Position numbers and translations under genes: made by a program. Positions 27,809 to 60,222 of a stretch of 64,000 nucleotides of DNA are shown one piece after another (the stretch's first letter is position 1; every line of letters begins with the position of its first letter). The notes beneath the pieces are model-generated. The model searched no databases and was not told the origin of the DNA. It was given only the letters and a program-made list of their open reading frames with translations. Source of the DNA: Candidatus Rokuibacteriota bacterium (GTDB taxonomy: Bacteria; Methylomirabilota; Methylomirabilia; Rokubacteriales; CSP1-6); assembly GCA_005887895.1 (NCBI GenBank), contig VBPC01000272.1, positions 5,561 through 69,560 of the forward strand, given 5' to 3'.

Positions 27809-29019
27809 CGCCGCATGATCAGCGCCGAGCCCAGCGGCGGCATCGCCCAGCCGAGGTTCATGGTGATCTCGGCGTCCTTGACCTGACGGCAGCGGCCGAC
27901 CGAATAGTCGTAGGTGTGCTGGCCCTCGGCGGCGCCGGGGCAGTAGTCGTCGACGCGGCCGCGGAGCTGGCGCACGTTCTCGATCACCATCGACATGCCG
28001 TGCGTGTAGCCCTCGCAGAGATGGCCACCCGCGGTGTTGTTCGGCCGCCTGCCGCCCAGCTCGATGACGCCGCTCGACACGTACGCGCCGCCCTCGCCCT
28101 TCTTGCAGAAGCCGTACTCCTCGAGCTGCAGCATCGTCGTGAAGGTGAACGCGTCGTAGGAGCCGGTGACGTGCACGTCGTCGGGGCCGATGCCGGCCTG
28201 GCCGAAGACGATGTCCTTCGCGTAGTAGCCGGCCACGCGGCTGATGGGCCCGTGCGCCCAGTGGAAGTCGAGCCGGGGCTTCGAGACGCGTCCCGCCACG
28301 CCCATGATGTACACCGGCCGCTGCCGACAGTTGCGCGCGCGCTCGGCGGAGGTGACGATGATGCAGGTCGCGTTGTCCGTCTCCAGGCAGCAGTCGAGCA
28401 GGTGCAGCGGCTTGACGATCCACCGCGAGCCGACGACGTCCTGCACGGTCACCCGCTCCTTGAGCAGCGCCTTGGGATTCTGCGAGGCGTGCTTGCTGTG
28501 GGCGACCTTGACGTGGGCCACCTGCTCGGACGTCGTGCCGTAGTCGTACATGTGGCGCATGAACGTGAGCGCGAAGTTCTGCCCGGCGCTGCGCATGCCG
28601 AACGGCACCTGGGCCAGGTCGAGGCCGCGCACCGGCTGGGCGGCGCGGGCGCCGGTGCCGCCGATGCGGAACTCGGAGTAGCCGTTCATGGACCGGTAGA
28701 TGGCGACCGTCCGGCACATGCCGGCCTCGATCGCGCCCATCGCGAGGCCGACCAGCGCCTCCGTCGACGAGCCGCCGCCGACCACGTCCATGTAGAAGTT
28801 CAGGCGGATGCCGAGGTCGGGCGCGACGTGCGGCGCCAGCGTCGAGTCGCCCGACTGGTAGTCCATCATCCCGTCCACGTCGGCGGCGGTGAGGCCGGCG
28901 TCGAGGATCGCCTTGCGCACGGCCTCCACGGCCATCGCGCGCGTCGACCGGTTCGAGCCGCGCGAGTATTCGGTCTCGCCCACGCCCACGATGCAGTACT
29001 TGTCGCGAAGATGGCTCAT
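27805..29019 (-). CDS. Thiolase-like protein (SCP-x/lipid-transfer type, DUF35 partner)
   Basis: 404 aa from ATG 29019 ([21 protein letters not shown]). The longer track ORF start lies inside REP copy 4. Confidence 0.8.
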
Positions 29020-51007: not shown

Positions 51008-52501
51008 ATGAAAACGGCCGTCGCGATGTCCCTTTTGCTCGCCGTGGCGCTGCCGGCGTGGGCCCAGTCGGCGCCACCGGCCGCGCCCGGCGCCGCCAAG
51101 CCGGCAACGGCCGACAAGCGTCAGCCCGCCGCCAAGAGTCCCGGCCAGAAGATCGATGCCCGCGCGGTCCTCCAGGCGATGGAGGAGGCCTTCAGCGCGG
51201 TGGCGGACCGTGTCACCCCGGCGGTGGTCAACGTCAGCACGATCCCCAAGCGCACGCCCCCCGGCACGACCGACGACCCCGAACGATTCCGGGATTACTT
51301 CGGTGAAGAGTTCTACGACCGGTACTTCAAGCGGCGGCCGCGCGAGGAGCCTCGGGCCAGCGGCTCGGGCGTGCTGGTGGATCGGGCCGGATACATCTTG
51401 ACGAACAATCACGTCATCGAGAACGCTCAGGACATCACCGTGCGCCTCTCCGATGCGCGGAAGTTTCCGGCGACCCTGGTCGGGCGTGACCCGAAGACGG
51501 ACCTGGCCGTGCTGAAGGTCGACGCGCCGGGGCCGCTGCCGACGGCGGAGCTCGGCGACTCCGAGCGCCTTCGCGTGGGGCAGTGGGTCATCGCGATCGG
51601 CAATCCCTTCGGCCTCGATCGCACGGTCACCGTGGGCATCGTCTCCGCCACCGCCCGCAATCGCGTCGGCGTGACAACCTACGAGAACTTCATCCAGACC
51701 GACGCCTCGATCAATCCCGGCAACTCCGGCGGTCCGCTGCTGAACCTCGACGGCCGCGTCATCGGCATCAACACCGCGATCGTCGCCGCCGGCCAGGGCA
51801 TCGGCTTCTCGATCCCGATCAACGAGGCGAAGGTGGTGATGAGCCAGCTGATCGCGAACGGCCGAGTGGTGCGCGGCTGGCTCGGCGTCGCCATCCAGGA
51901 CGTCACCGACGAGCTGGCCTCGAGCTTCGGCGTGCGCGAGCGCGAGGGCGTCCTCGTGGCCGACGTGATGAAGGGCGGGCCCGCCGAGGTGGCCGGACTG
52001 CGTCCCGGCGACGTGATCGTCGAGCTCAACGGCAGCAAGATCCGCGAGGTCCCCGAGCTGCAGCGGCGCATCGCCAACGTCGCCCCCGGTCAGAGCGTCG
52101 CGATCGCCGTCGTGCGCGATCGCGCCACCCAGCGGCTCAAGGTCCGCGTGGGCGAGATGCCCAGCGAGGAGCCGCTGATCGCGTCCGTCGACGCCGGCCC
52201 CGAGGGATTCGGGCTGCAGGTCGAGCCGCTGCCGCCGGACGCCGCTGACCGGTTGAGCCTGCCCTTCAGCGAGGGGCTGCTGGTCACGGACGTGGCCGGC
52301 GGCGGGCCCGCCGACCGTGCCGGGCTCCGTCGCGGCGACGTCATCCTCGAGGTGGGCCGCCAGGTCGTGCACGACGCGCCGGCGCTGCAGCGCGCGCTGT
52401 CGGCCGTGCCGGCCGGGCGCTCGGTCCTCCTGTGGGTGCACCGGCCCGGCGGTGGCGGGCACAACCAGTACCTCGTGCTGGAGCGGGACGCCGGCCGATG
52501 A
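51008..52501 (+). CDS. HtrA/DegP-family periplasmic serine protease with two PDZ domains
   Basis: 497 aa with a signal peptide. The catalytic triad context is TNNHV, DLAVLKV and GNSGGPL. Confidence 0.9.
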   Translation: MKTAVAMSLLLAVALPAWAQSAPPAAPGAAKPATADKRQPAAKSPGQKIDARAVLQAMEEAFSAVADRVTPAVVNVSTIPKRTPPGTTDDPERFRDYFGEEFYDRYFKRRPREEPRASGSGVLVDRAGYILTNNHVIENAQDITVRLSDARKFPATLVGRDPKTDLAVLKVDAPGPLPTAELGDSERLRVGQWVIAIGNPFGLDRTVTVGIVSATARNRVGVTTYENFIQTDASINPGNSGGPLLNLDGRVIGINTAIVAAGQGIGFSIPINEAKVVMSQLIANGRVVRGWLGVAIQDVTDELASSFGVREREGVLVADVMKGGPAEVAGLRPGDVIVELNGSKIREVPELQRRIANVAPGQSVAIAVVRDRATQRLKVRVGEMPSEEPLIASVDAGPEGFGLQVEPLPPDAADRLSLPFSEGLLVTDVAGGGPADRAGLRRGDVILEVGRQVVHDAPALQRALSAVPAGRSVLLWVHRPGGGGHNQYLVLERDAGR

Positions 52502-53940
52502 TGGCCGCCGACCTGCTCGAGCCACCGACGCTCTCGCGGCGCGGTACCGTCCTCGTCGTCGACGACGAGGACGGCGTGCGCGCCTCCATCCGCGCGATCC
52601 TCGAGGGCCGGTGCGAGGTGCTGGAGGCCGAGACCGGCGCCGCCGCGCTCGAGGTGCTGCGGGCCCGGGACGTCGATCTCGTCATGCTCGATCAGCGGAT
52701 GCCCGGCGAGCCCGGCATCGACGTGCTGCCGCGCGTGAAGGCCGCCGACCCCTCGACGGTGGTCGTGCTGGCCACCGCCGTCCACGACGTGCGAACGGCC
52801 GTGGAGGCGCTCAAGCGCGGCGCCTACGACTACATCACCAAGCCGTTCGACGTGGACGACATCCTGATGCTGGTCGAGCGCGCGCTGGAGAAGCGCGCCC
52901 TCGAGCGCCAGGTGCTGTGCCTGCAGTCGGCGCTCACGCCGGCCGGCATCGAGACGCCGGACGGCTTCGAGGGACTGGTCGGCCGTCAGCCGGAGATGGT
53001 GCGCATCTACCAGCTCATCACCCAGATCGCGACCACGCCGACCACCGTGCTGATCACCGGCGAGAGCGGGACCGGCAAGGAGCTGGTGGCGCGGGCGATC
53101 CACCAGCGCAGCGATCGCGCCGGCCATCCGTTCGTGGCGGTCAACGTGGCGGCCATTCCCGAGACGCTGGTCGAGTCCGAGCTGTTCGGCCACGAGAAGG
53201 GCGCGTTCACCGGCGCCCACGCCCGCCGCCTCGGCAAGTTCGAGCTGGCCCAGGGCGGCACGATCTTCCTGGACGAGATCGGCTCGCTGCGCCTGGATCT
53301 GCAGACCAAGCTCCTGCGCGTGCTCCAGCAGCGCGAGGTGGAGCGGCTCGGCGGCAGCCGCGCGATCCCCGTCGACGTGCGCGTGCTGGCCGCCACCAAC
53401 GTCAACCTCCGGCAGGCCGTGCGCGACCGCGCCTTCCGCGATGATCTCTACTATCGCCTCAACGTGGTGCCGATCCACGTCCCCCCGCTGCGCGAGCGGC
53501 GCGAGGACATCGCCCGGCTGGTCGAGCACTTCGTGCGCAAGTTCGCCCGCGAGTGCCACCGCGACGTGCGCGGCGTCTCGGCCGGCGCCCTGGCGGCGCT
53601 GACCCGCTACGACTGGCCCGGCAACGTGCGCGAGCTGGAGAACGTGATCCAGCGCGCGGTGGTGCTGGCCCGCGCCGCCGTGCTGCACCTGCAGGACGTG
53701 CCGCTGGACGTGGCGATGCCGGAGACGGTCTCCCTGCTGGCCGAGGATGCGCTGCCGCTGCGGGAGGCGTGCGATCAGTTCGAGCGCCAGTACGTGGTAC
53801 GGACGCTGGAGCGCGCGCAGTGGAACGTGAGCCGGGCGGCGCGCCTGCTCGGCGTCCATCGCAATACCGTGCTGGTCAAGCTGGCCGCCTGGGGCGTGCA
53901 CCGTCCCGGCGCGTCGGAGGGAAGGAGCGCGACTCCGTGA
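52498..53940 (+). CDS. sigma54-dependent response regulator (NtrC family), second copy
   Basis: 480 aa with an ATGA overlap with htrA. VLVVDDEDG...LVMLDQRMPG, GESGTGKE, ESELFGHEKGAFTGA and a C-terminal HTH are present. Confidence 0.9.
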   Translation: MMAADLLEPPTLSRRGTVLVVDDEDGVRASIRAILEGRCEVLEAETGAAALEVLRARDVDLVMLDQRMPGEPGIDVLPRVKAADPSTVVVLATAVHDVRTAVEALKRGAYDYITKPFDVDDILMLVERALEKRALERQVLCLQSALTPAGIETPDGFEGLVGRQPEMVRIYQLITQIATTPTTVLITGESGTGKELVARAIHQRSDRAGHPFVAVNVAAIPETLVESELFGHEKGAFTGAHARRLGKFELAQGGTIFLDEIGSLRLDLQTKLLRVLQQREVERLGGSRAIPVDVRVLAATNVNLRQAVRDRAFRDDLYYRLNVVPIHVPPLRERREDIARLVEHFVRKFARECHRDVRGVSAGALAALTRYDWPGNVRELENVIQRAVVLARAAVLHLQDVPLDVAMPETVSLLAEDALPLREACDQFERQYVVRTLERAQWNVSRAARLLGVHRNTVLVKLAAWGVHRPGASEGRSATP

Positions 53941-55532
53941 GCCCGATTCGAGGTGTGGCCCCCGCGGTCGTGGTCATCCTCGTGGCGGCCGCGGCCTGGC
54001 TGGCGGCCGCGACGCCGGCGATGGCGCAGCTGACCGACGCCGACGTCTACGTCGCCGAGGCCACCCTGGCGATCGAGGACAAGCAGTGGGACAGGGCGCT
54101 CGACCTCCTGCGTCAGGCGCTGGCCAAGGAGCCGGACCACGTCGAGGCGCTGTACTACACCGGCGTGGCGTACATGGGCAAGCGGCAGCCAGCCGAAGCC
54201 GTCAAGTACCTGGAGCCGGCCCGGGAGAAGTCACCGACCGACACCTCGATCGCCTATCAGCTCGGACTGGCCTACGTCGCGCTCGAGCAGTACGACAAGG
54301 CGCAGCCGCTTCTCGAGCAGGCGTTCGCCCGCGATCCCACGCTCGACTCGCTCGGCTACTACGTCGGCTACCTCCGCTATCGCAAGGAGCAGTACCAGGA
54401 CGCCCTGCGCGCGTTCCGCGCGGCGCGCACCGCCGATCCCACGATCGCCGACCTCACCCGGCTGTACGCCGGCCTCTCGCTGCAGAAGCTCGGGCTGCCG
54501 GCCCAGGCCGAGGCCGAGATCGCGCAGATCGGCCAGCTCCAGCCCGCCTCGCCGCTGACCGGCCCGGCCGAGCGGCTCAAGAGCTCGCTGGCCTCCGCGC
54601 GGGAAACCACGCGGCGCTTCCGCGCCGAGGTCAAGCTCGGCGGCTTCTACGACGACAACGCGGCGGCCGAGCCGAACCAGCGGGCCGACGACCGGGCCGT
54701 CGACCTGGCGCGCCAGAACAACCGGCGGACGTTCGGCGAGCTCCTCTCGGTCGGCGCGGAGTACGACTGGCTGCGCCTGAAGGCGTGGACCGGCACGGCC
54801 GGCCTCTCGTTCTTCGGCACGCACAACAACACCCTCGGGTCGTTCGACATCGACGACTACACCGCCAGCGTGCGCCTCGCCCGGCGCGGCACGCTGTTCG
54901 ATCTGCCGACGCAGGCGGGCATCAACTTCGCCTACGACCACCTGACGCTGGGCTACCACAAGCTGGTCGATCGATACTCGGCCTCGACCTACCTGGCCCT
55001 CGTGGAGAGCGCCCGGCACCTCACGAACTTCCAGGCGCGTGTGGAAGGCAAGGACTACAGCCATCTGCCGGACACGCCGCACCAGGAGCTCCAGGATGCC
55101 ATCAACTACCTGGTCGGGTTCATCCACTTCGTGCGCTTCGAGCGGGATCGGCACTTCGTCAAGGGCGGCTTCCAGTACGACTACGACGCCACTCGCGGCA
55201 GCGACTTCGAGTACCGCGGCTATCGCTTCCTGCTGGGTGGCCAGTACACGTTGCCGTGGCGCGACGTCCGCCTGACCTACGACTTCGATCTCCACTACCG
55301 CGATTACCTGAACCGCCACGCCTTTCTTCCACTGGAACGTCCGGGCTCCGTGGAGCGGTCGGACAAGGAGTTCACGAACACGGTCCGCGCCGAGGTGCCG
55401 TTGCCCTGGTTCGTGAAGAATCAGGCGCTATTCCTGACCGGGGAGTACACGAACAAGATCGTCGACTCGAACATCAACGCCTTCAGCTACCGCCGGAACT
55501 ACGCCGCGATCTACTTCACCTGGCAGTATTAG
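53937..55532 (+). CDS. Signal-peptide protein with an N-terminal TPR domain and a C-terminal outer-membrane beta-barrel-like domain
   Basis: 531 aa from GTG 53937, with a GTGA overlap. It has TPR repeats, then alternating amphipathic beta-strands. It ends in IYFTWQY, an aromatic terminus typical of outer-membrane proteins. Confidence 0.65.
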   Translation: MSPIRGVAPAVVVILVAAAAWLAAATPAMAQLTDADVYVAEATLAIEDKQWDRALDLLRQALAKEPDHVEALYYTGVAYMGKRQPAEAVKYLEPAREKSPTDTSIAYQLGLAYVALEQYDKAQPLLEQAFARDPTLDSLGYYVGYLRYRKEQYQDALRAFRAARTADPTIADLTRLYAGLSLQKLGLPAQAEAEIAQIGQLQPASPLTGPAERLKSSLASARETTRRFRAEVKLGGFYDDNAAAEPNQRADDRAVDLARQNNRRTFGELLSVGAEYDWLRLKAWTGTAGLSFFGTHNNTLGSFDIDDYTASVRLARRGTLFDLPTQAGINFAYDHLTLGYHKLVDRYSASTYLALVESARHLTNFQARVEGKDYSHLPDTPHQELQDAINYLVGFIHFVRFERDRHFVKGGFQYDYDATRGSDFEYRGYRFLLGGQYTLPWRDVRLTYDFDLHYRDYLNRHAFLPLERPGSVERSDKEFTNTVRAEVPLPWFVKNQALFLTGEYTNKIVDSNINAFSYRRNYAAIYFTWQY

Positions 55533-56748
55533 TCACATGGGGGGCCCCGAGATGGCCCCCCACCCCCACCAATGTTCGGAGCGCCCCGGCAGAGCCGCGG
55601 CGCTCCTCTAACGCAGCGCCTCTAGCGGCGAGCGGCCGGCCGCTCACGCGCGGTCCGCTGGGCCGCGGCGTGAAGCTGTTCAGCGAATCGCCGCTGGCTC
55701 CGCCCGTCGCGGCGGCGACGTTGCTGGCCTGCTCGACCTGCCGGTCGCTGATGTGCTGGTTCGCCCCGCTCGGGGGCTGATGCAGGCGGGCCTTGTAGCT
55801 GTTGGCGATGGTCTGCGCCTCCAGCCGCGTGATGTTGCGCGGCCCGGTCGGCGGCGTGAAGCCGCTGACCCCGAGCGTCTGCAGCGCGTTCAGCGTGAAC
55901 GGCGAGCCCACGAGGCGCCCGGACTGGTCGCGCAGGAAGACGTCGACGAGGCCCGTGAGCAGCGTGAGATCGGTCTTCGGCTGGCCGGCCACCTGCGTGA
56001 CCTCGGTGATGAGCACCGTCCCGCGGACACCGGCGACCGCATTCGGCGTCTTCACGTCGATCCGCTCGCCGGGCTTCATCTTCTCCTTGGCGACGGCGAG
56101 CGCGACCCGGCCCGAGGTGATGTCGATGGTCGAGGTGCCCCCGGTCTCGGTGATCGTCAGCGAGGAGTGCTCGCGCACCGTGACCACCGCGGCGCCGCCG
56201 AGCAGGATGCGCGCGAGCGACTGATCGCCGGTCTGGATCATGTCCTGGACCCGGACCGGATCCTTGAACTTGAGCGGCAGGATCTGCGGCGCCGGCTGCT
56301 CGGTGGACACGCGCCGGACCGTCGCCGTGCCCTGCAGCGTCGTGACGAACCCGGCCGGCTTCATGTCCTGCGCGAACGCCGCCAGCGGCAGCGCGAGCGC
56401 GACGGCGCCCGAGGTGATGTCGATGGTCGAGGTGCCCCCGGTCTCGGTGATCGTCAGCGAGGAGTGCTCGCGCACCGTGACCACCGCGGCGCCGCCGAGC
56501 AGGATGCGCGCGAGCGACTGATCGCCGGTCTGGATCATGTCCTGGACCCGGACCGGATCCTTGAACTTGAGCGGCAGGATCTGCGGCGCCGGCTGCTCGG
56601 TGGACACGCGCCGGACCGTCGCCGTGCCCTGCAGCGTCGTGACGAACCCGGCCGGCTTCATGTCCTGCGCGAACGCCGCCAGCGGCAGCGCGAGCGCGAC
56701 GGCGGCAGCGATGATCGATCCCGTGAACAGCGTCCTTGTGTGTCTCAT
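55516..56748 (-). CDS. FecR-domain secreted protein containing an exact 99-aa internal tandem duplication
   Basis: 410 aa from ATG 56748, with a GAGGAGGA Shine-Dalgarno. The signal peptide is followed by a FecR-like segment (VQDMIQTGDQSLARILLGGAAVVTVREHSSLTI) that occurs twice. The last 30 or so codons read through REP copy 6. Confidence 0.65.
   Translation of the reverse strand: MRHTRTLFTGSIIAAAVALALPLAAFAQDMKPAGFVTTLQGTATVRRVSTEQPAPQILPLKFKDPVRVQDMIQTGDQSLARILLGGAAVVTVREHSSLTITETGGTSTIDITSGAVALALPLAAFAQDMKPAGFVTTLQGTATVRRVSTEQPAPQILPLKFKDPVRVQDMIQTGDQSLARILLGGAAVVTVREHSSLTITETGGTSTIDITSGRVALAVAKEKMKPGERIDVKTPNAVAGVRGTVLITEVTQVAGQPKTDLTLLTGLVDVFLRDQSGRLVGSPFTLNALQTLGVSGFTPPTGPRNITRLEAQTIANSYKARLHQPPSGANQHISDRQVEQASNVAAATGGASGDSLNSFTPRPSGPRVSGRPLAARGAALEERRGSAGALRTLVGVGGHLGAPHVTNTAR
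55536..55606 (+). repeat. Two-hairpin intergenic repeat (REP-like), copy 6
   Basis: catggggggccccgagatggccccccacccccaccaatgttcggagcgccccggcagagccgcggcgctcc, starting 4 nt after the beta-barrel gene stop. Confidence 0.85.
56110..56703. repeat. Perfect tandem duplication, 2 x 297 bp
   Basis: 56110-56406 is identical to 56407-56703 by manual alignment. The track ORFs at 56240 and 56537 share identical N-terminal sequences. Confidence 0.9.
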
Positions 56749-57075
56749 GAGTCCTCCTCGAAGCGCGATCCGCATGTTCGGACTCTGGGAGATCAACGCG
56801 ATGGCAAAGGGCCTGCCAGGCCCCTTACGCCTCGATCGACGCTGTGTTTGCAGCCGCTTGCGCGCCTCGATTGCCCGCGCTCGCCCGTGTCCCATCGCCC
56901 ATTTCACCGCCATCGGTCGGGCGCGTTCGGCGTTGTGCCCGACGCTCGTGACGGCGCACCGATCATTGCGTAGACGCCAGGGCACAGTCAATGGTCGTGA
57001 CGCGGGCCCCGGACCGCAGCGCGCGGGGGTGATCAGAAATCATCCGCACCCCGGAACGATGGGTGCCATCAGGGG

Positions 57076-58059
57076 TCAGGGGCGTCCGAGGCCGTAAAGC
57101 ACGAGAACCAGGGCCCCGAACTCGCGCACCGCCGAGAGCCGGTCGGCCGCGCGGCCCGGGTCCACGTGCTGCAGGACGTGGACGAGCACGAGCTGCGTGC
57201 GCTGCGGGCGCGCGGCGGCCAGGCGCAGGCTCTCGGTGTAGGGCACCGCGGGATCGTCGACGCCGTGCACGAGTACCAGGCGCGCCGGGATCTCGCGCGC
57301 CACGCGCTCGGGCGAGAGCCGGGCCAGCAGCTCGGCGACGCGGGGCGGAGGCGCGCGCAGCACGGCGGCAGCGCGCCCGGGATCGGCGAGAGCCTCGCGG
57401 GCGGACGAGTCGAGGAGATCGGCGTTGGCCTCGACGAACGCGCGGACGACGTCGGGCGCGTGCACGACCCGACCGCGCACGCCGTCCCACGCGTACTCCC
57501 CGGTGAGGAAGAAGCGCAGCAGCTCCGGAGCCGACGCGTACCCGCCGAGGCTGAGCACCGTGCGCACGCGCTCGCGCACCGCGGGATCGGCGGCCGCGAG
57601 CAGGGCGGGGCCGGCCCCGACACTCACGCCGACCACGACGGTCGGCGCGGCCCGTGCGGCGAGCGCGCTGACGACGGGACGCACGTCTTCGGGCCGGAGC
57701 CGGCCGCGCGTGAGCCCGGGAATCGTCGGCACCGTGACGTCGAAGCCGGCCCGGGCCAGCAGCGCGGCTGCCGCCTGGACGCGCGGCTCATCCTTGCCGC
57801 CCGGCGCGTAGCCGTGCACGAGTACGAGCGGCACGCCGCCGTCGCCGCTCCAGCGGTCGACGGCGGCGCCCTCGACGTGCAGGGACTCGCGGCGCGGGGC
57901 GGGGGTCAGCGCGGAGAGCGGACGCCGGGCGCCGCCCGACAGGAACTCGACCAGGAAGGCGGTGGCGAGGACGAGGCCGACGGCGGCCTGCGCGACCGGC
58001 ACGACGAGCAGCGCGGCGACGACGAGGCCGAGGAGCCGGGTTACTTCCGGTTGACGCAC
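57076..58059 (-). CDS. Alpha/beta-fold hydrolase with an N-terminal TM anchor
   Basis: It has a core of about 300 aa (VLVHGYAPGG, GVSVGAG nucleophile-elbow-like, LVHGVDDPAVP). The start is uncertain: GTG 58059 overlaps the upstream gene by 19 nt, and GTG 58002 is an alternative. Confidence 0.65.
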   Translation of the reverse strand: MRQPEVTRLLGLVVAALLVVPVAQAAVGLVLATAFLVEFLSGGARRPLSALTPAPRRESLHVEGAAVDRWSGDGGVPLVLVHGYAPGGKDEPRVQAAAALLARAGFDVTVPTIPGLTRGRLRPEDVRPVVSALAARAAPTVVVGVSVGAGPALLAAADPAVRERVRTVLSLGGYASAPELLRFFLTGEYAWDGVRGRVVHAPDVVRAFVEANADLLDSSAREALADPGRAAAVLRAPPPRVAELLARLSPERVAREIPARLVLVHGVDDPAVPYTESLRLAAARPQRTQLVLVHVLQHVDPGRAADRLSAVREFGALVLVLYGLGRP

Positions 58060-58845: not shown

Positions 58846-60222
58846 CTAGCCGCGGCCGCCCCGCAGGGCCGCCAGAAAACGGGTCATGATCGCGTCCCCG
58901 ACCTCACGCTCGCCGGCCGGCAGCCCGGCCGCACGCCAGTCGCGGACGCGCACGACGGCCTTGGCCATCGAGCGATGGCCGCCGGCGCTGCCGAGAGCGG
59001 CGAACGCCTCGTGCACGACGTCGCCGGCGGCCCGCACGTAGCCGACGTTGCGAACCGACACGTGCAGCTCGGCGGCGATCCGCCCCGAGACCACCGACCA
59101 CTCGGCGCCCTCGACCTGCAGGAAGAGATCGGCGAACTGCGCGACGAGCTCGGGATAGCCGACCGGGCCCAGGTGCGCGAACATCACGCCCTCGACGAGC
59201 CGGCGGCCGGCGATGCCGCGGGCCAGCACGTCGAGCGCGGCCTCGGGCAGATCGGGCCGCTCGATGCGCCGGAGCGCGTTGTGGTTGGCGTGGCCGTGGA
59301 GAAACGCGAACGCGTCCATGTCGGCCCGGGTGGCGCCGCGCTCGAGATGCAGCGTGTCGGCCTTGATCCCGTAGAGGAGCGCGGTGGCCAGACGCTCGCG
59401 GATCTTGACGTCGGCGGCGCGCAGGTACTCGGTGAGGATCGTCGACGTCGCGCCGTAGGCGGGGCGGATGTCGCGCAGGCGCGCGCGGACCGGCGTGTCC
59501 TCGGGATGGTGATCGATCACGAGGTCGACCTCGGCCAGGCGCTCCTCGAAGAACGCCGGCTGGGTGTCGACCATCGCGATCTTGTCGTACTCCTCGACCG
59601 CGCGCGGCTTCACCTGCTCGACGTCGATCTCGAGGATGCGCGTCATCGCCCGGTTCTCGGGGCGGGTGATGGCGCCGAACGTCCCGATCGTGGCCGCCGA
59701 CTTCGTACGACCGAGCAGCGTGCGCAGCGCCCACGCCGAGGCGATCGCATCCGGGTCGGGATCGTCCTGCATCATGATGAGCACGCGGTCGGCCCGGGCG
59801 AAGTGCTCGCGCACCCGGGCGGCGCGGGCGCGGGCGACGGCGCGCTCCAGCGCCGGCTCCAGGATCGCGGCGGTGACGCGGGCGGGCGCCAGCGTCGCCA
59901 CCGGCTCGGCGTCGGCCGGCGCCGCGTCGGCGAACACGACGAGCGGCGCGGCGGGCGCCACCCCCCGGATGGCGGCGATCACACGCGCCTGCCGGGCGCG
60001 ATCGACGGCGATCAGCACCGGCTCGGTGCCGCTGCGAAACGCGCGGCGATAGACCGCCTCGTCGTCGAGGCGGCCGGCCAGCGCCTCGCCGCCGTGCTCG
60101 TGGATGCGGGCGCGCAGCCGCGGCTGCTCCACGATCCACACCGGCGCCAGCCGGGCCTCGCCCCGGTCGGCGGCCAGCCGCCACAGGAAGTCGTCCGCGC
60201 ACACGAAGAGGCAGCGCATCAC
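58846..60222 (-). CDS. DHH/DHHA1-family phosphoesterase with an N-terminal extension
   Basis: 458 aa. DPDPDAIAS, the VIDHHP (DHH) motif and the C-terminal GGH motif (SAGGHRSMA) are present. Confidence 0.75.
   Translation of the reverse strand: MMRCLFVCADDFLWRLAADRGEARLAPVWIVEQPRLRARIHEHGGEALAGRLDDEAVYRRAFRSGTEPVLIAVDRARQARVIAAIRGVAPAAPLVVFADAAPADAEPVATLAPARVTAAILEPALERAVARARAARVREHFARADRVLIMMQDDPDPDAIASAWALRTLLGRTKSAATIGTFGAITRPENRAMTRILEIDVEQVKPRAVEEYDKIAMVDTQPAFFEERLAEVDLVIDHHPEDTPVRARLRDIRPAYGATSTILTEYLRAADVKIRERLATALLYGIKADTLHLERGATRADMDAFAFLHGHANHNALRRIERPDLPEAALDVLARGIAGRRLVEGVMFAHLGPVGYPELVAQFADLFLQVEGAEWSVVSGRIAAELHVSVRNVGYVRAAGDVVHEAFAALGSAGGHRSMAKAVVRVRDWRAAGLPAGEREVGDAIMTRFLAALRGGRG

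Follow-up and report, generated by a model that had tools for sequence, protein, structure and literature searches.

A perfect 297-bp tandem duplication in a FecR-domain gene of a Rokubacteria draft genome, probably a local assembly error

The window, which is the whole 64-kb stretch of DNA that was analysed, carries on its minus strand a gene encoding a FecR-domain protein. The ORF starts with an ATG at 56748, associated with a recognizable RBS (RBS GAGGAGGA plus ATG, 56746–56759), and ends with a stop codon at 55516–55518, giving a product of 410 aa. The following features are present at this locus:

53937–55532, plus strand: ORF of the convergent neighbour, a 531-aa TPR protein with a signal peptide, whose end is overlapped by the run-on FecR ORF by 17 nt
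55516–56748, minus strand: ORF in the form present in this contig, encoding the secreted FecR-domain protein P0001 (410 aa), identified as an ORF and by Pfam FecR
55539–55606, minus strand: two GC-rich palindromes of a REP-like intergenic repeat family, traversed by the frame-shifted tail of the FecR ORF
55638–55639, no strand assigned: junction of a 103-nt deletion private to this contig, with a 4-nt microhomology (GCCG), from the comparison with sister contigs
56096–56106, plus strand: 11-nt direct repeat GCGAGCGCGAC, left-flank copy; the minus strand encodes here the VALA of GRVALAVAKEK
56110–56406, minus strand: repeat copy 2 in gene order, aa 115–213, identical to copy 1 by sequence comparison
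56365–56406, minus strand: internal remnant of the signal peptide, aa 115–128, AVALALPLAAFAQD, read from the sequence and placed in a linker predicted to be disordered
56393–56403, plus strand: 11-mer GCGAGCGCGAC at the unit end, 3 nt ahead of the junction 56406/56407
56407–56703, minus strand: repeat copy 1 in gene order, aa 16–114, from sequence comparison and structural models
56668–56748, minus strand: predicted Sec-type signal peptide, aa 1–27, read from the sequence as MRHTRTLFTGSIIAAAVALALPLAAFA followed by QD, with an A-F-A motif before the putative cut
56690–56700, plus strand: 11-mer GCGAGCGCGAC at the end of the second unit, encoding the VALA of the signal peptide

The Pfam FecR domain (PF04773) is matched with 47.5 bits, against a cut-off of 24, at aa 170–268 (profile positions 2–96 of 97), and this is the only stretch of the 410-aa protein that it matches. 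Cleavage of the signal peptide would be expected after A-F-A, at aa 27. The intact single-copy form of the protein (P0122, 310 aa), which comes from sister contig L027, was modelled with 60 homologues; pLDDT exceeds 90 over residues 31–220, and the model presents 13 beta strands in aa 34–196, followed by two helices (209–218 and 230–248) and a disordered tail. The family alignment places at the C-terminus a conserved Cys motif with a basic end, of consensus C-x3-CEG-x8-RR. In the model of the 410-aa form, copy 2 and the part downstream of it fold with pLDDT above 90, copy 1 forms a half domain of lower confidence (pLDDT 72–81), and the linker at aa 112–127 is predicted to be disordered (pLDDT below 50). 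The N-terminus of the signal peptide has low confidence in both models.

The top matches of a Foldseek search against the PDB were 6OVK_R and 4M0N/4M0H, with probability 1.0, TM of 0.52–0.55 on the target and about 148 aligned columns at 13–18% identity. The predicted all-beta domain is thus similar to the C-terminal cell-surface signalling domain of PupR (6OVK) and to BDI_1681 (4M0N, 4M0H). Unlike these, the protein encoded here has neither a cytoplasmic anti-sigma domain nor a membrane anchor, only a signal peptide predicted to be cleavable, and it possesses an extra C-terminal tail with the conserved Cys motif. An N-terminal anti-sigma domain and a transmembrane helix are absent, the signal peptide leading straight into the beta domain, and Pfam finds no other domain in the protein. 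Among its neighbours in the sister contigs there are no genes for an ECF sigma factor or a TonB-dependent transducer; these neighbours encode a DHH phosphoesterase, a UbiE-type methyltransferase, an alpha/beta hydrolase, the TPR protein, a sigma54-dependent response regulator and an HtrA-like protease. With no anti-sigma domain or anchor, and in such a neighbourhood, the protein is a FecR-domain protein of the secreted, stand-alone kind, and it does not belong to the FecR-type anti-sigma factors.

Direct comparison of positions 56110–56406 with 56407–56703 revealed identity at 297 of 297 bases, and Tandem Repeats Finder returned a single array (56096–56704, period 297, 2.1 copies), which is the sole long tandem repeat within the window. 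An earlier reading of this DNA from its sequence alone (the sequence-only reading) had described a perfect duplication of 2 x 297 bp that encodes two exact in-frame copies of a 99-aa block on the minus strand, and this is borne out: the unit is in frame, and aa 16–114 of the ORF product equal aa 115–213. The same reading had the block start inside the signal peptide, which is correct; the block begins at A16, so that AVALALPLAAFAQD recurs at aa 115–128, and the signal-peptide remnant it proposed within the mature protein can be read there in the sequence. Its further statement that the block covers most of the FecR-like fold was too strong. Copy 1 comprises the end of the signal peptide, beta strands 1–7 and half of strand 8, out of 13 strands in the AlphaFold model (residues 31–114 of 31–196), which is about half of the beta domain; as the PF04773 match is confined to aa 170–268, only 44 of its 99 residues fall within the duplicated block. 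It is copy 2, with the sequence downstream, that makes up a complete FecR domain.

The junction of the duplication, at which GCGAGCGCGACGGC is followed directly by GCCCGAGGTG, lies 3 mismatched bases past the 11-mer GCGAGCGCGAC. Copies of this 11-mer are also found 297 bp apart in all the single-copy sister contigs, and the frequency of an exact run of at least 11 in a 20-nt flank at such an offset is about 5e-4 in this genome. Chance is excluded as the origin of the repeat itself, since a 297-nt exact repeat cannot arise in that way. A repeat family or mobile element was also rejected: the unit is present at only one locus of the genome, and its next-best match there is a 68%-identical paralogue on another contig (C58).

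Comparison with orthologues, which the sequence-only reading had proposed, was carried out, and close relatives and sister contigs are all single copy. In a search of 5.8 billion protein clusters, the best matches spanned 60–62% of the 410-aa query, and no FecR-domain protein returned spanned more than 60–67% of it. All of the 120 homologues listed carry PF04773, and the duplication is in none of them; a natural repeat-domain protein is therefore rejected, one copy being found in all 120 and in every sister contig. A database look-up of the exact 410-aa product found no record. Contigs L021–L025 were reached through two of the homologues, P0002, which has 268 aa and 98% identity, and P0003, which has 312 aa and 92% identity; contig L026 was found by a pattern scan and contigs L027–L036 by means of the neighbouring methyltransferase, while the neighbouring 550-aa ORF gave no match in public contigs.

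The site is covered by 13 of these sister contigs (L021–L023 and L026–L035), at 99–99.9% identity. The sister contigs represent about 12 samples and include IDBA-type scaffolds, MEGAHIT k141 contigs and JGI assemblies. A single copy is read through in 12 of the 13. The remaining one, L029, has a gap of 142 Ns at the site; filling it would take 144 nt with a single copy and 441 nt with two. The closest comparison is provided by L028, which differs from the window by no SNP over 51845–55631 and by seven SNPs in 12 kb, and which has the private alleles of the window at 56795 and 56826; this near-identical strain is single copy. In addition, a 30-mer across the junction had no match in the JGI metagenome contigs. 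The 297-bp duplication is private to one contig.

The same gene carries a second private change. At 55638/55639, 103 nt that are present in all the sister contigs covering the site are deleted, 471 nt away from the duplication, and no homology was found at this deletion beyond the 4-nt microhomology. The deletion shifts the frame, and the conserved C-terminal Cys motif and the native stop are lost, so that the ORF extends through the palindromes to 55516 and ends 17 nt within the convergent TPR gene. Contig L028 has a gap of 170 Ns precisely at this site, a size that fits the undeleted sequence, of about 175 nt, whereas the window has 72 nt here. Over the 12 kb compared between the window and L028, the duplication and the 103-nt deletion are the sole structural differences, and both are in the FecR gene. 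Other indels occur in the population: in contigs L021–L023 the protein ends after 268 aa because of a 1-nt deletion, and L026 presents deletions of 35 and 37 nt in the region.

The MAG to which the window belongs comprises 352 contigs and 5.54 Mb, with 92% completeness and 35 runs of Ns. A scan of this genome revealed seven exact two-copy tandem duplications, with units of 176–420 bp:

C218:18606, period 420 bp: rhodanese
C16:8643, period 414 bp: 2-oxoacid dehydrogenase E2 catalytic domain (acyltransferase)
C37:2238, period 333 bp: ABC_tran ATPase
C31 (the contig of the window), period 297 bp: FecR-domain gene
C13:13840, period 279 bp: MutL ATPase domain
C74:4795, period 212 bp
C266:294, period 176 bp

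Besides the one in the FecR gene, four duplications hit conserved domains (rhodanese, E2, ABC_tran and MutL). In six of the seven, taken in contig orientation, the left flank matches the end of the unit at 12–17 of 20 bases, against a genome-wide mean of 6.4 of 20 (p from 6e-4 to 5e-3 for each of the six); the right flanks of the same six are at or near this background. As the homology lies on the same contig side while three of the six genes are on the plus strand and three on the minus strand, the asymmetry tracks the contig and not the gene. The left side is the one concerned in all six informative cases of this MAG and in one further case from a second MAG (G009, below), which gives a two-sided p of about 0.02–0.03 on 6–7 events. 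The junctions in C13 and C74 include one base that matches neither parent site. In mutL, the 279-bp duplication is flanked by deletions of 20 nt and about 112 nt relative to orthologues of the genus, the former sitting between two GCGGCCGGC repeats, so that three anomalies occur within 0.9 kb. The mutL orthologues that were compared, from the related genomes G005 and G006, have neither the second copy nor the deletions. Unmerged contig overlap at scaffold joins was considered as a source of the duplications and rejected: no duplicated flanks from unmerged overlaps were found at the 35 N-gaps of the MAG, and the flank homology would be left unexplained.

The rpL6 protein of the MAG has the same sequence as that listed in a supplementary file of Diamond et al. 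2019 (PMC6784897) for "14_0927_12_20cm_Rokubacteria_6355_71_8", a name that indicates 71% GC and a coverage of about 8x; the GC content of the window is 71.9%. In that study, 2 x 250-bp reads were assembled per sample with IDBA-UD, and "scaffolding errors" in the bins were corrected according to Anantharaman et al. 2016 (PMC6784897). This repair finds regions of zero coverage, and reads within 1 kb are reassembled with Velvet and patched in, or Ns take the place of the region (PMC5079060). Chen et al. 2020 (Genome Res) described local errors that reads do not support as prominent in IDBA-UD assemblies, and reported that sequence duplicated at gaps occurs and that wrong repeat numbers are a common error (PMC7111523).

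Genome G009, which its rpL6 identifies as "14_1009_16_40cm_Bacteria_10176_71_10" of the same study, has one duplication of 2 x 512 bp with 2 mismatches in 0.76 Mb sampled; it crosses a gene boundary and, as in the MAG of the window, has left-flank homology, here of 10 nt. No such duplication was found in 0.30 Mb sampled of G007, a genome without Ns whose rpL6 has no match in the part of the supplement compared. In G006, a genome of the genus in 4 contigs, 1.6 Mb contained no two-copy duplications, only diverged multi-copy arrays; at the rate of the MAG (1.26 events per Mb) the probability of finding none in 1.6 Mb is 0.13, and this control is consistent with an artefact, if weakly.

The duplication is present in the record and is probably absent from the organism. 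We consider, with a probability of about 0.7, that the second 297-bp copy is a local mis-assembly that is absent from the DNA of the organism. A local assembly error is likely because independent assemblies have a single copy and because six more repeats occur in the same draft genome. The sequence-only reading had offered either a recent duplication or an assembly artefact; this alternative still frames the problem, and the wider evidence tips it towards the artefact. That evidence includes the private nature of the copy, the recurrence of such duplications in two MAGs of one study, the contig-oriented signature and the adjacent private deletions, as well as the N-gaps that sister scaffolds have at the same two spots, sized for normal sequence. 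Moreover, published accounts show that this pipeline introduces local errors and also patches them (PMC7111523, PMC5079060). The error would have arisen in a soil MAG of about 8x coverage, during IDBA-UD assembly and the subsequent automated repair of "scaffolding errors" with Velvet patches; either assembly or patching would have produced the 297-bp copy, and its junction is assumed to have no supporting reads. The true gene would be the 310-aa single-copy form of the sister assemblies, encoding a Sec-secreted beta domain of FecR fold with two helices and a disordered tail that carries the conserved Cys motif. A low-coverage soil MAG, private sequence and recurrent events are features shared with the errors described for IDBA-UD and automatically curated MAGs (PMC7111523). 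On the other hand, the cases of Chen et al. had Ns between duplicated flanks or pre-existing arrays, whereas here there are no Ns and the ancestor is single copy (PMC7111523).

Since this MAG serves as a species representative, the finding is mainly a warning about data quality. The gene model of the FecR protein, 410 aa long and with an internal signal peptide, is probably wrong, as are probably at least four others, those of the rhodanese, the E2 acyltransferase, the ABC ATPase and mutL. In protein catalogues, models of this kind can give rise to false calls of "domain duplication" or "pseudogene".

The weakest point of the artefact reading is that no software step can be named that joins sequences at imperfect matches of 11–17 nt. 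We know of no documented assembler step that does so, and no description of an assembly signature with joins beside imperfect homologies of 10–17 nt was found in the literature. A junction beside a short imperfect direct repeat is expected from replication slippage or homeologous recombination. The absence of unmerged overlaps at the N-gaps of the MAG, the limited sampling of the control genomes and the 6–7 events behind the orientation test weigh on the same side. It also counts against an artefact that the unit length is divisible by 3 in five of the seven duplications, which could reflect selection on real events; this in-frame bias does not discriminate between the readings, because codon-phased homology yields the same bias.

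A real and very recent duplication, generated by slippage or homeologous recombination between the GCGAGCGCGAC sites and dominant in the strain of one soil sample, is considered unlikely. It is favoured by the 11-nt direct repeat that the single-copy alleles already have at both ends of the unit, with the low chance frequency given above, by the frame of the unit and by the other indels of the population at this gene; the loss of the C-terminus of the FecR gene in two different ways would fit relaxed selection. De Bruijn assemblers usually require junction k-mers in the reads to thread a loop twice. However, none of the 13 sister contigs has the copy, the near-identical strain of L028 included, and six further duplications of zero divergence, several of them in conserved enzyme domains, are hard to square with purifying selection. 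The one-sided homology that tracks contig orientation and the private deletions that adjoin the duplications also argue against real events. Duplications formed in bacteria by slipped-strand or illegitimate recombination are likewise head-to-tail, without divergence, and have a short direct repeat in the ancestral allele; in contrast to them, the junction here lies 3 mismatched bases past the repeat and not inside it, the side is constant in all informative cases whatever the strand of the gene, and the junction has no independent observation among the 13 sister contigs or the JGI contigs.

Real events of this kind would provide a rare natural record of homeology-mediated duplication from an uncultured phylum. 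In that case the gene would encode a secreted protein with an extra N-terminal half FecR domain and a hydrophobic linker resembling a signal peptide. With 14 residues, the remnant would not be long enough to cross a membrane; its A-F-A site would fall in the linker predicted to be disordered, where cleavage may occur. With its frameshifted C-terminus, the FecR gene would look like a decaying copy.

It is much less probable that a minority junction, from a low-frequency subpopulation or from template-switch chimeras of library preparation, was threaded into the assembly at about 8x coverage. Tandem duplications form and are lost again frequently, the low coverage is the one given by the MAG name, the homology signature resembles that of template switching, and the breaks of sister scaffolds within the FecR gene suggest a tangled graph. 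Nevertheless, such a junction would need to recur at seven places in one MAG, and random chimeras should lack a consistent asymmetry of contig side.

Little weight is also given to real duplications in a hyper-recombining lineage, in which the disruption of mutL by the 279-bp duplication and the two deletions would abolish mismatch repair, lift the barrier to recombination between imperfect repeats and cause a burst of homeology-flanked tandem duplications and of deletions in housekeeping genes of a single uncultured strain of soil Rokubacteria.

The FecR-domain gene of the window (55516–56748, minus strand) has lost its native 3′ end. At 55638/55639, 103 nt are missing, a deletion private to the window contig, which causes a frameshift and takes away the native stop codon together with the conserved C-terminal Cys motif of the protein. 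At the same site, the sister scaffold L028 presents a gap of 170 Ns. Three sister contigs from different samples (L021–L023) share a 1-nt deletion (CCC to CC), at the position equivalent to 55660, and this cuts their protein to 268 aa (P0002). The C-terminal tail was thus lost in two different ways in the population.

A disordered tail ends the secreted FecR-domain proteins of Methylomirabilota-like soil bacteria, as seen in the alignment of the homologues (A1; P0003, P0005, P0008 and P0122). In this family, the tail has a basic end and its Cys motif is conserved, with the consensus C-x3-CEG-x8-RR, as in CDCLTEGRPLSAARR. The motif had no match to any known motif; it might serve in protein sorting or in metal binding.

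The window also contains the following element:

55539–55606, minus strand: two GC-rich palindromes, GGAGCGCCGCGGCTCTGCCGGGGCGCTCC and GGGGGGCCATCTCGGGGCCCCCC, between convergent genes

The MAG has 54 occurrences of this pattern, and the ORF tail read through the palindromes gives dozens of short matches in each genome of the genus. The palindromes look like a REP-like intergenic repeat family and are possibly bidirectional terminators. From this element, 35 nt (equivalent to 55580–55614) are absent in L026, a contig of this population assembled at JGI; the alpha/beta-hydrolase gene of L026 is also short of 37 nt (equivalent to 57542–57578). Small indels are common among the assemblies of this population. 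In addition, the window differs from L027, L028 and L030 by a cluster of five SNPs in 49 nt (60067–60115), with identical flanks. The cluster could mark a short tract of recombination, or one of the assemblies could switch strains there.

Besides the duplication in the window, six more exact two-copy tandem duplications are present in the MAG (G000):

C218:18606–19451, 420 bp
C16:8643–9471, 414 bp
C37:2238–2904, 333 bp
C13:13840–14396, 279 bp, in MutL
C74:4795–5215, 212 bp
C266:294–645, 176 bp

Four of them are inside the genes for a rhodanese, an E2 acyltransferase, an ABC ATPase and MutL; most of the six show homology of 12–17/20, at the left flank only. The mutL gene (C13:12612–14480, locus L037) has three anomalies inside 0.9 kb:

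a deletion of 20 nt, located between two copies of the repeat GCGGCCGGC
the 279-bp duplication
a deletion of roughly 112 nt

The long ORF is still open, although its middle part is out of frame.

G009, a second MAG from the same study, contains a 2 × 512-bp tandem duplication with two mismatches (C57:21280–22303, locus L050), which covers the end of an mfd-like gene and the beginning of a gene for a SurA-like lipoprotein and has 10-nt homology at its left flank. Short tandem arrays that repeat every 83–87 bp are numerous in G006, a four-contig genome of the genus, at several places on contig C2, for example at 28178, 882112–882299 and 931378 (coordinates in the joined 1.2 Mb).
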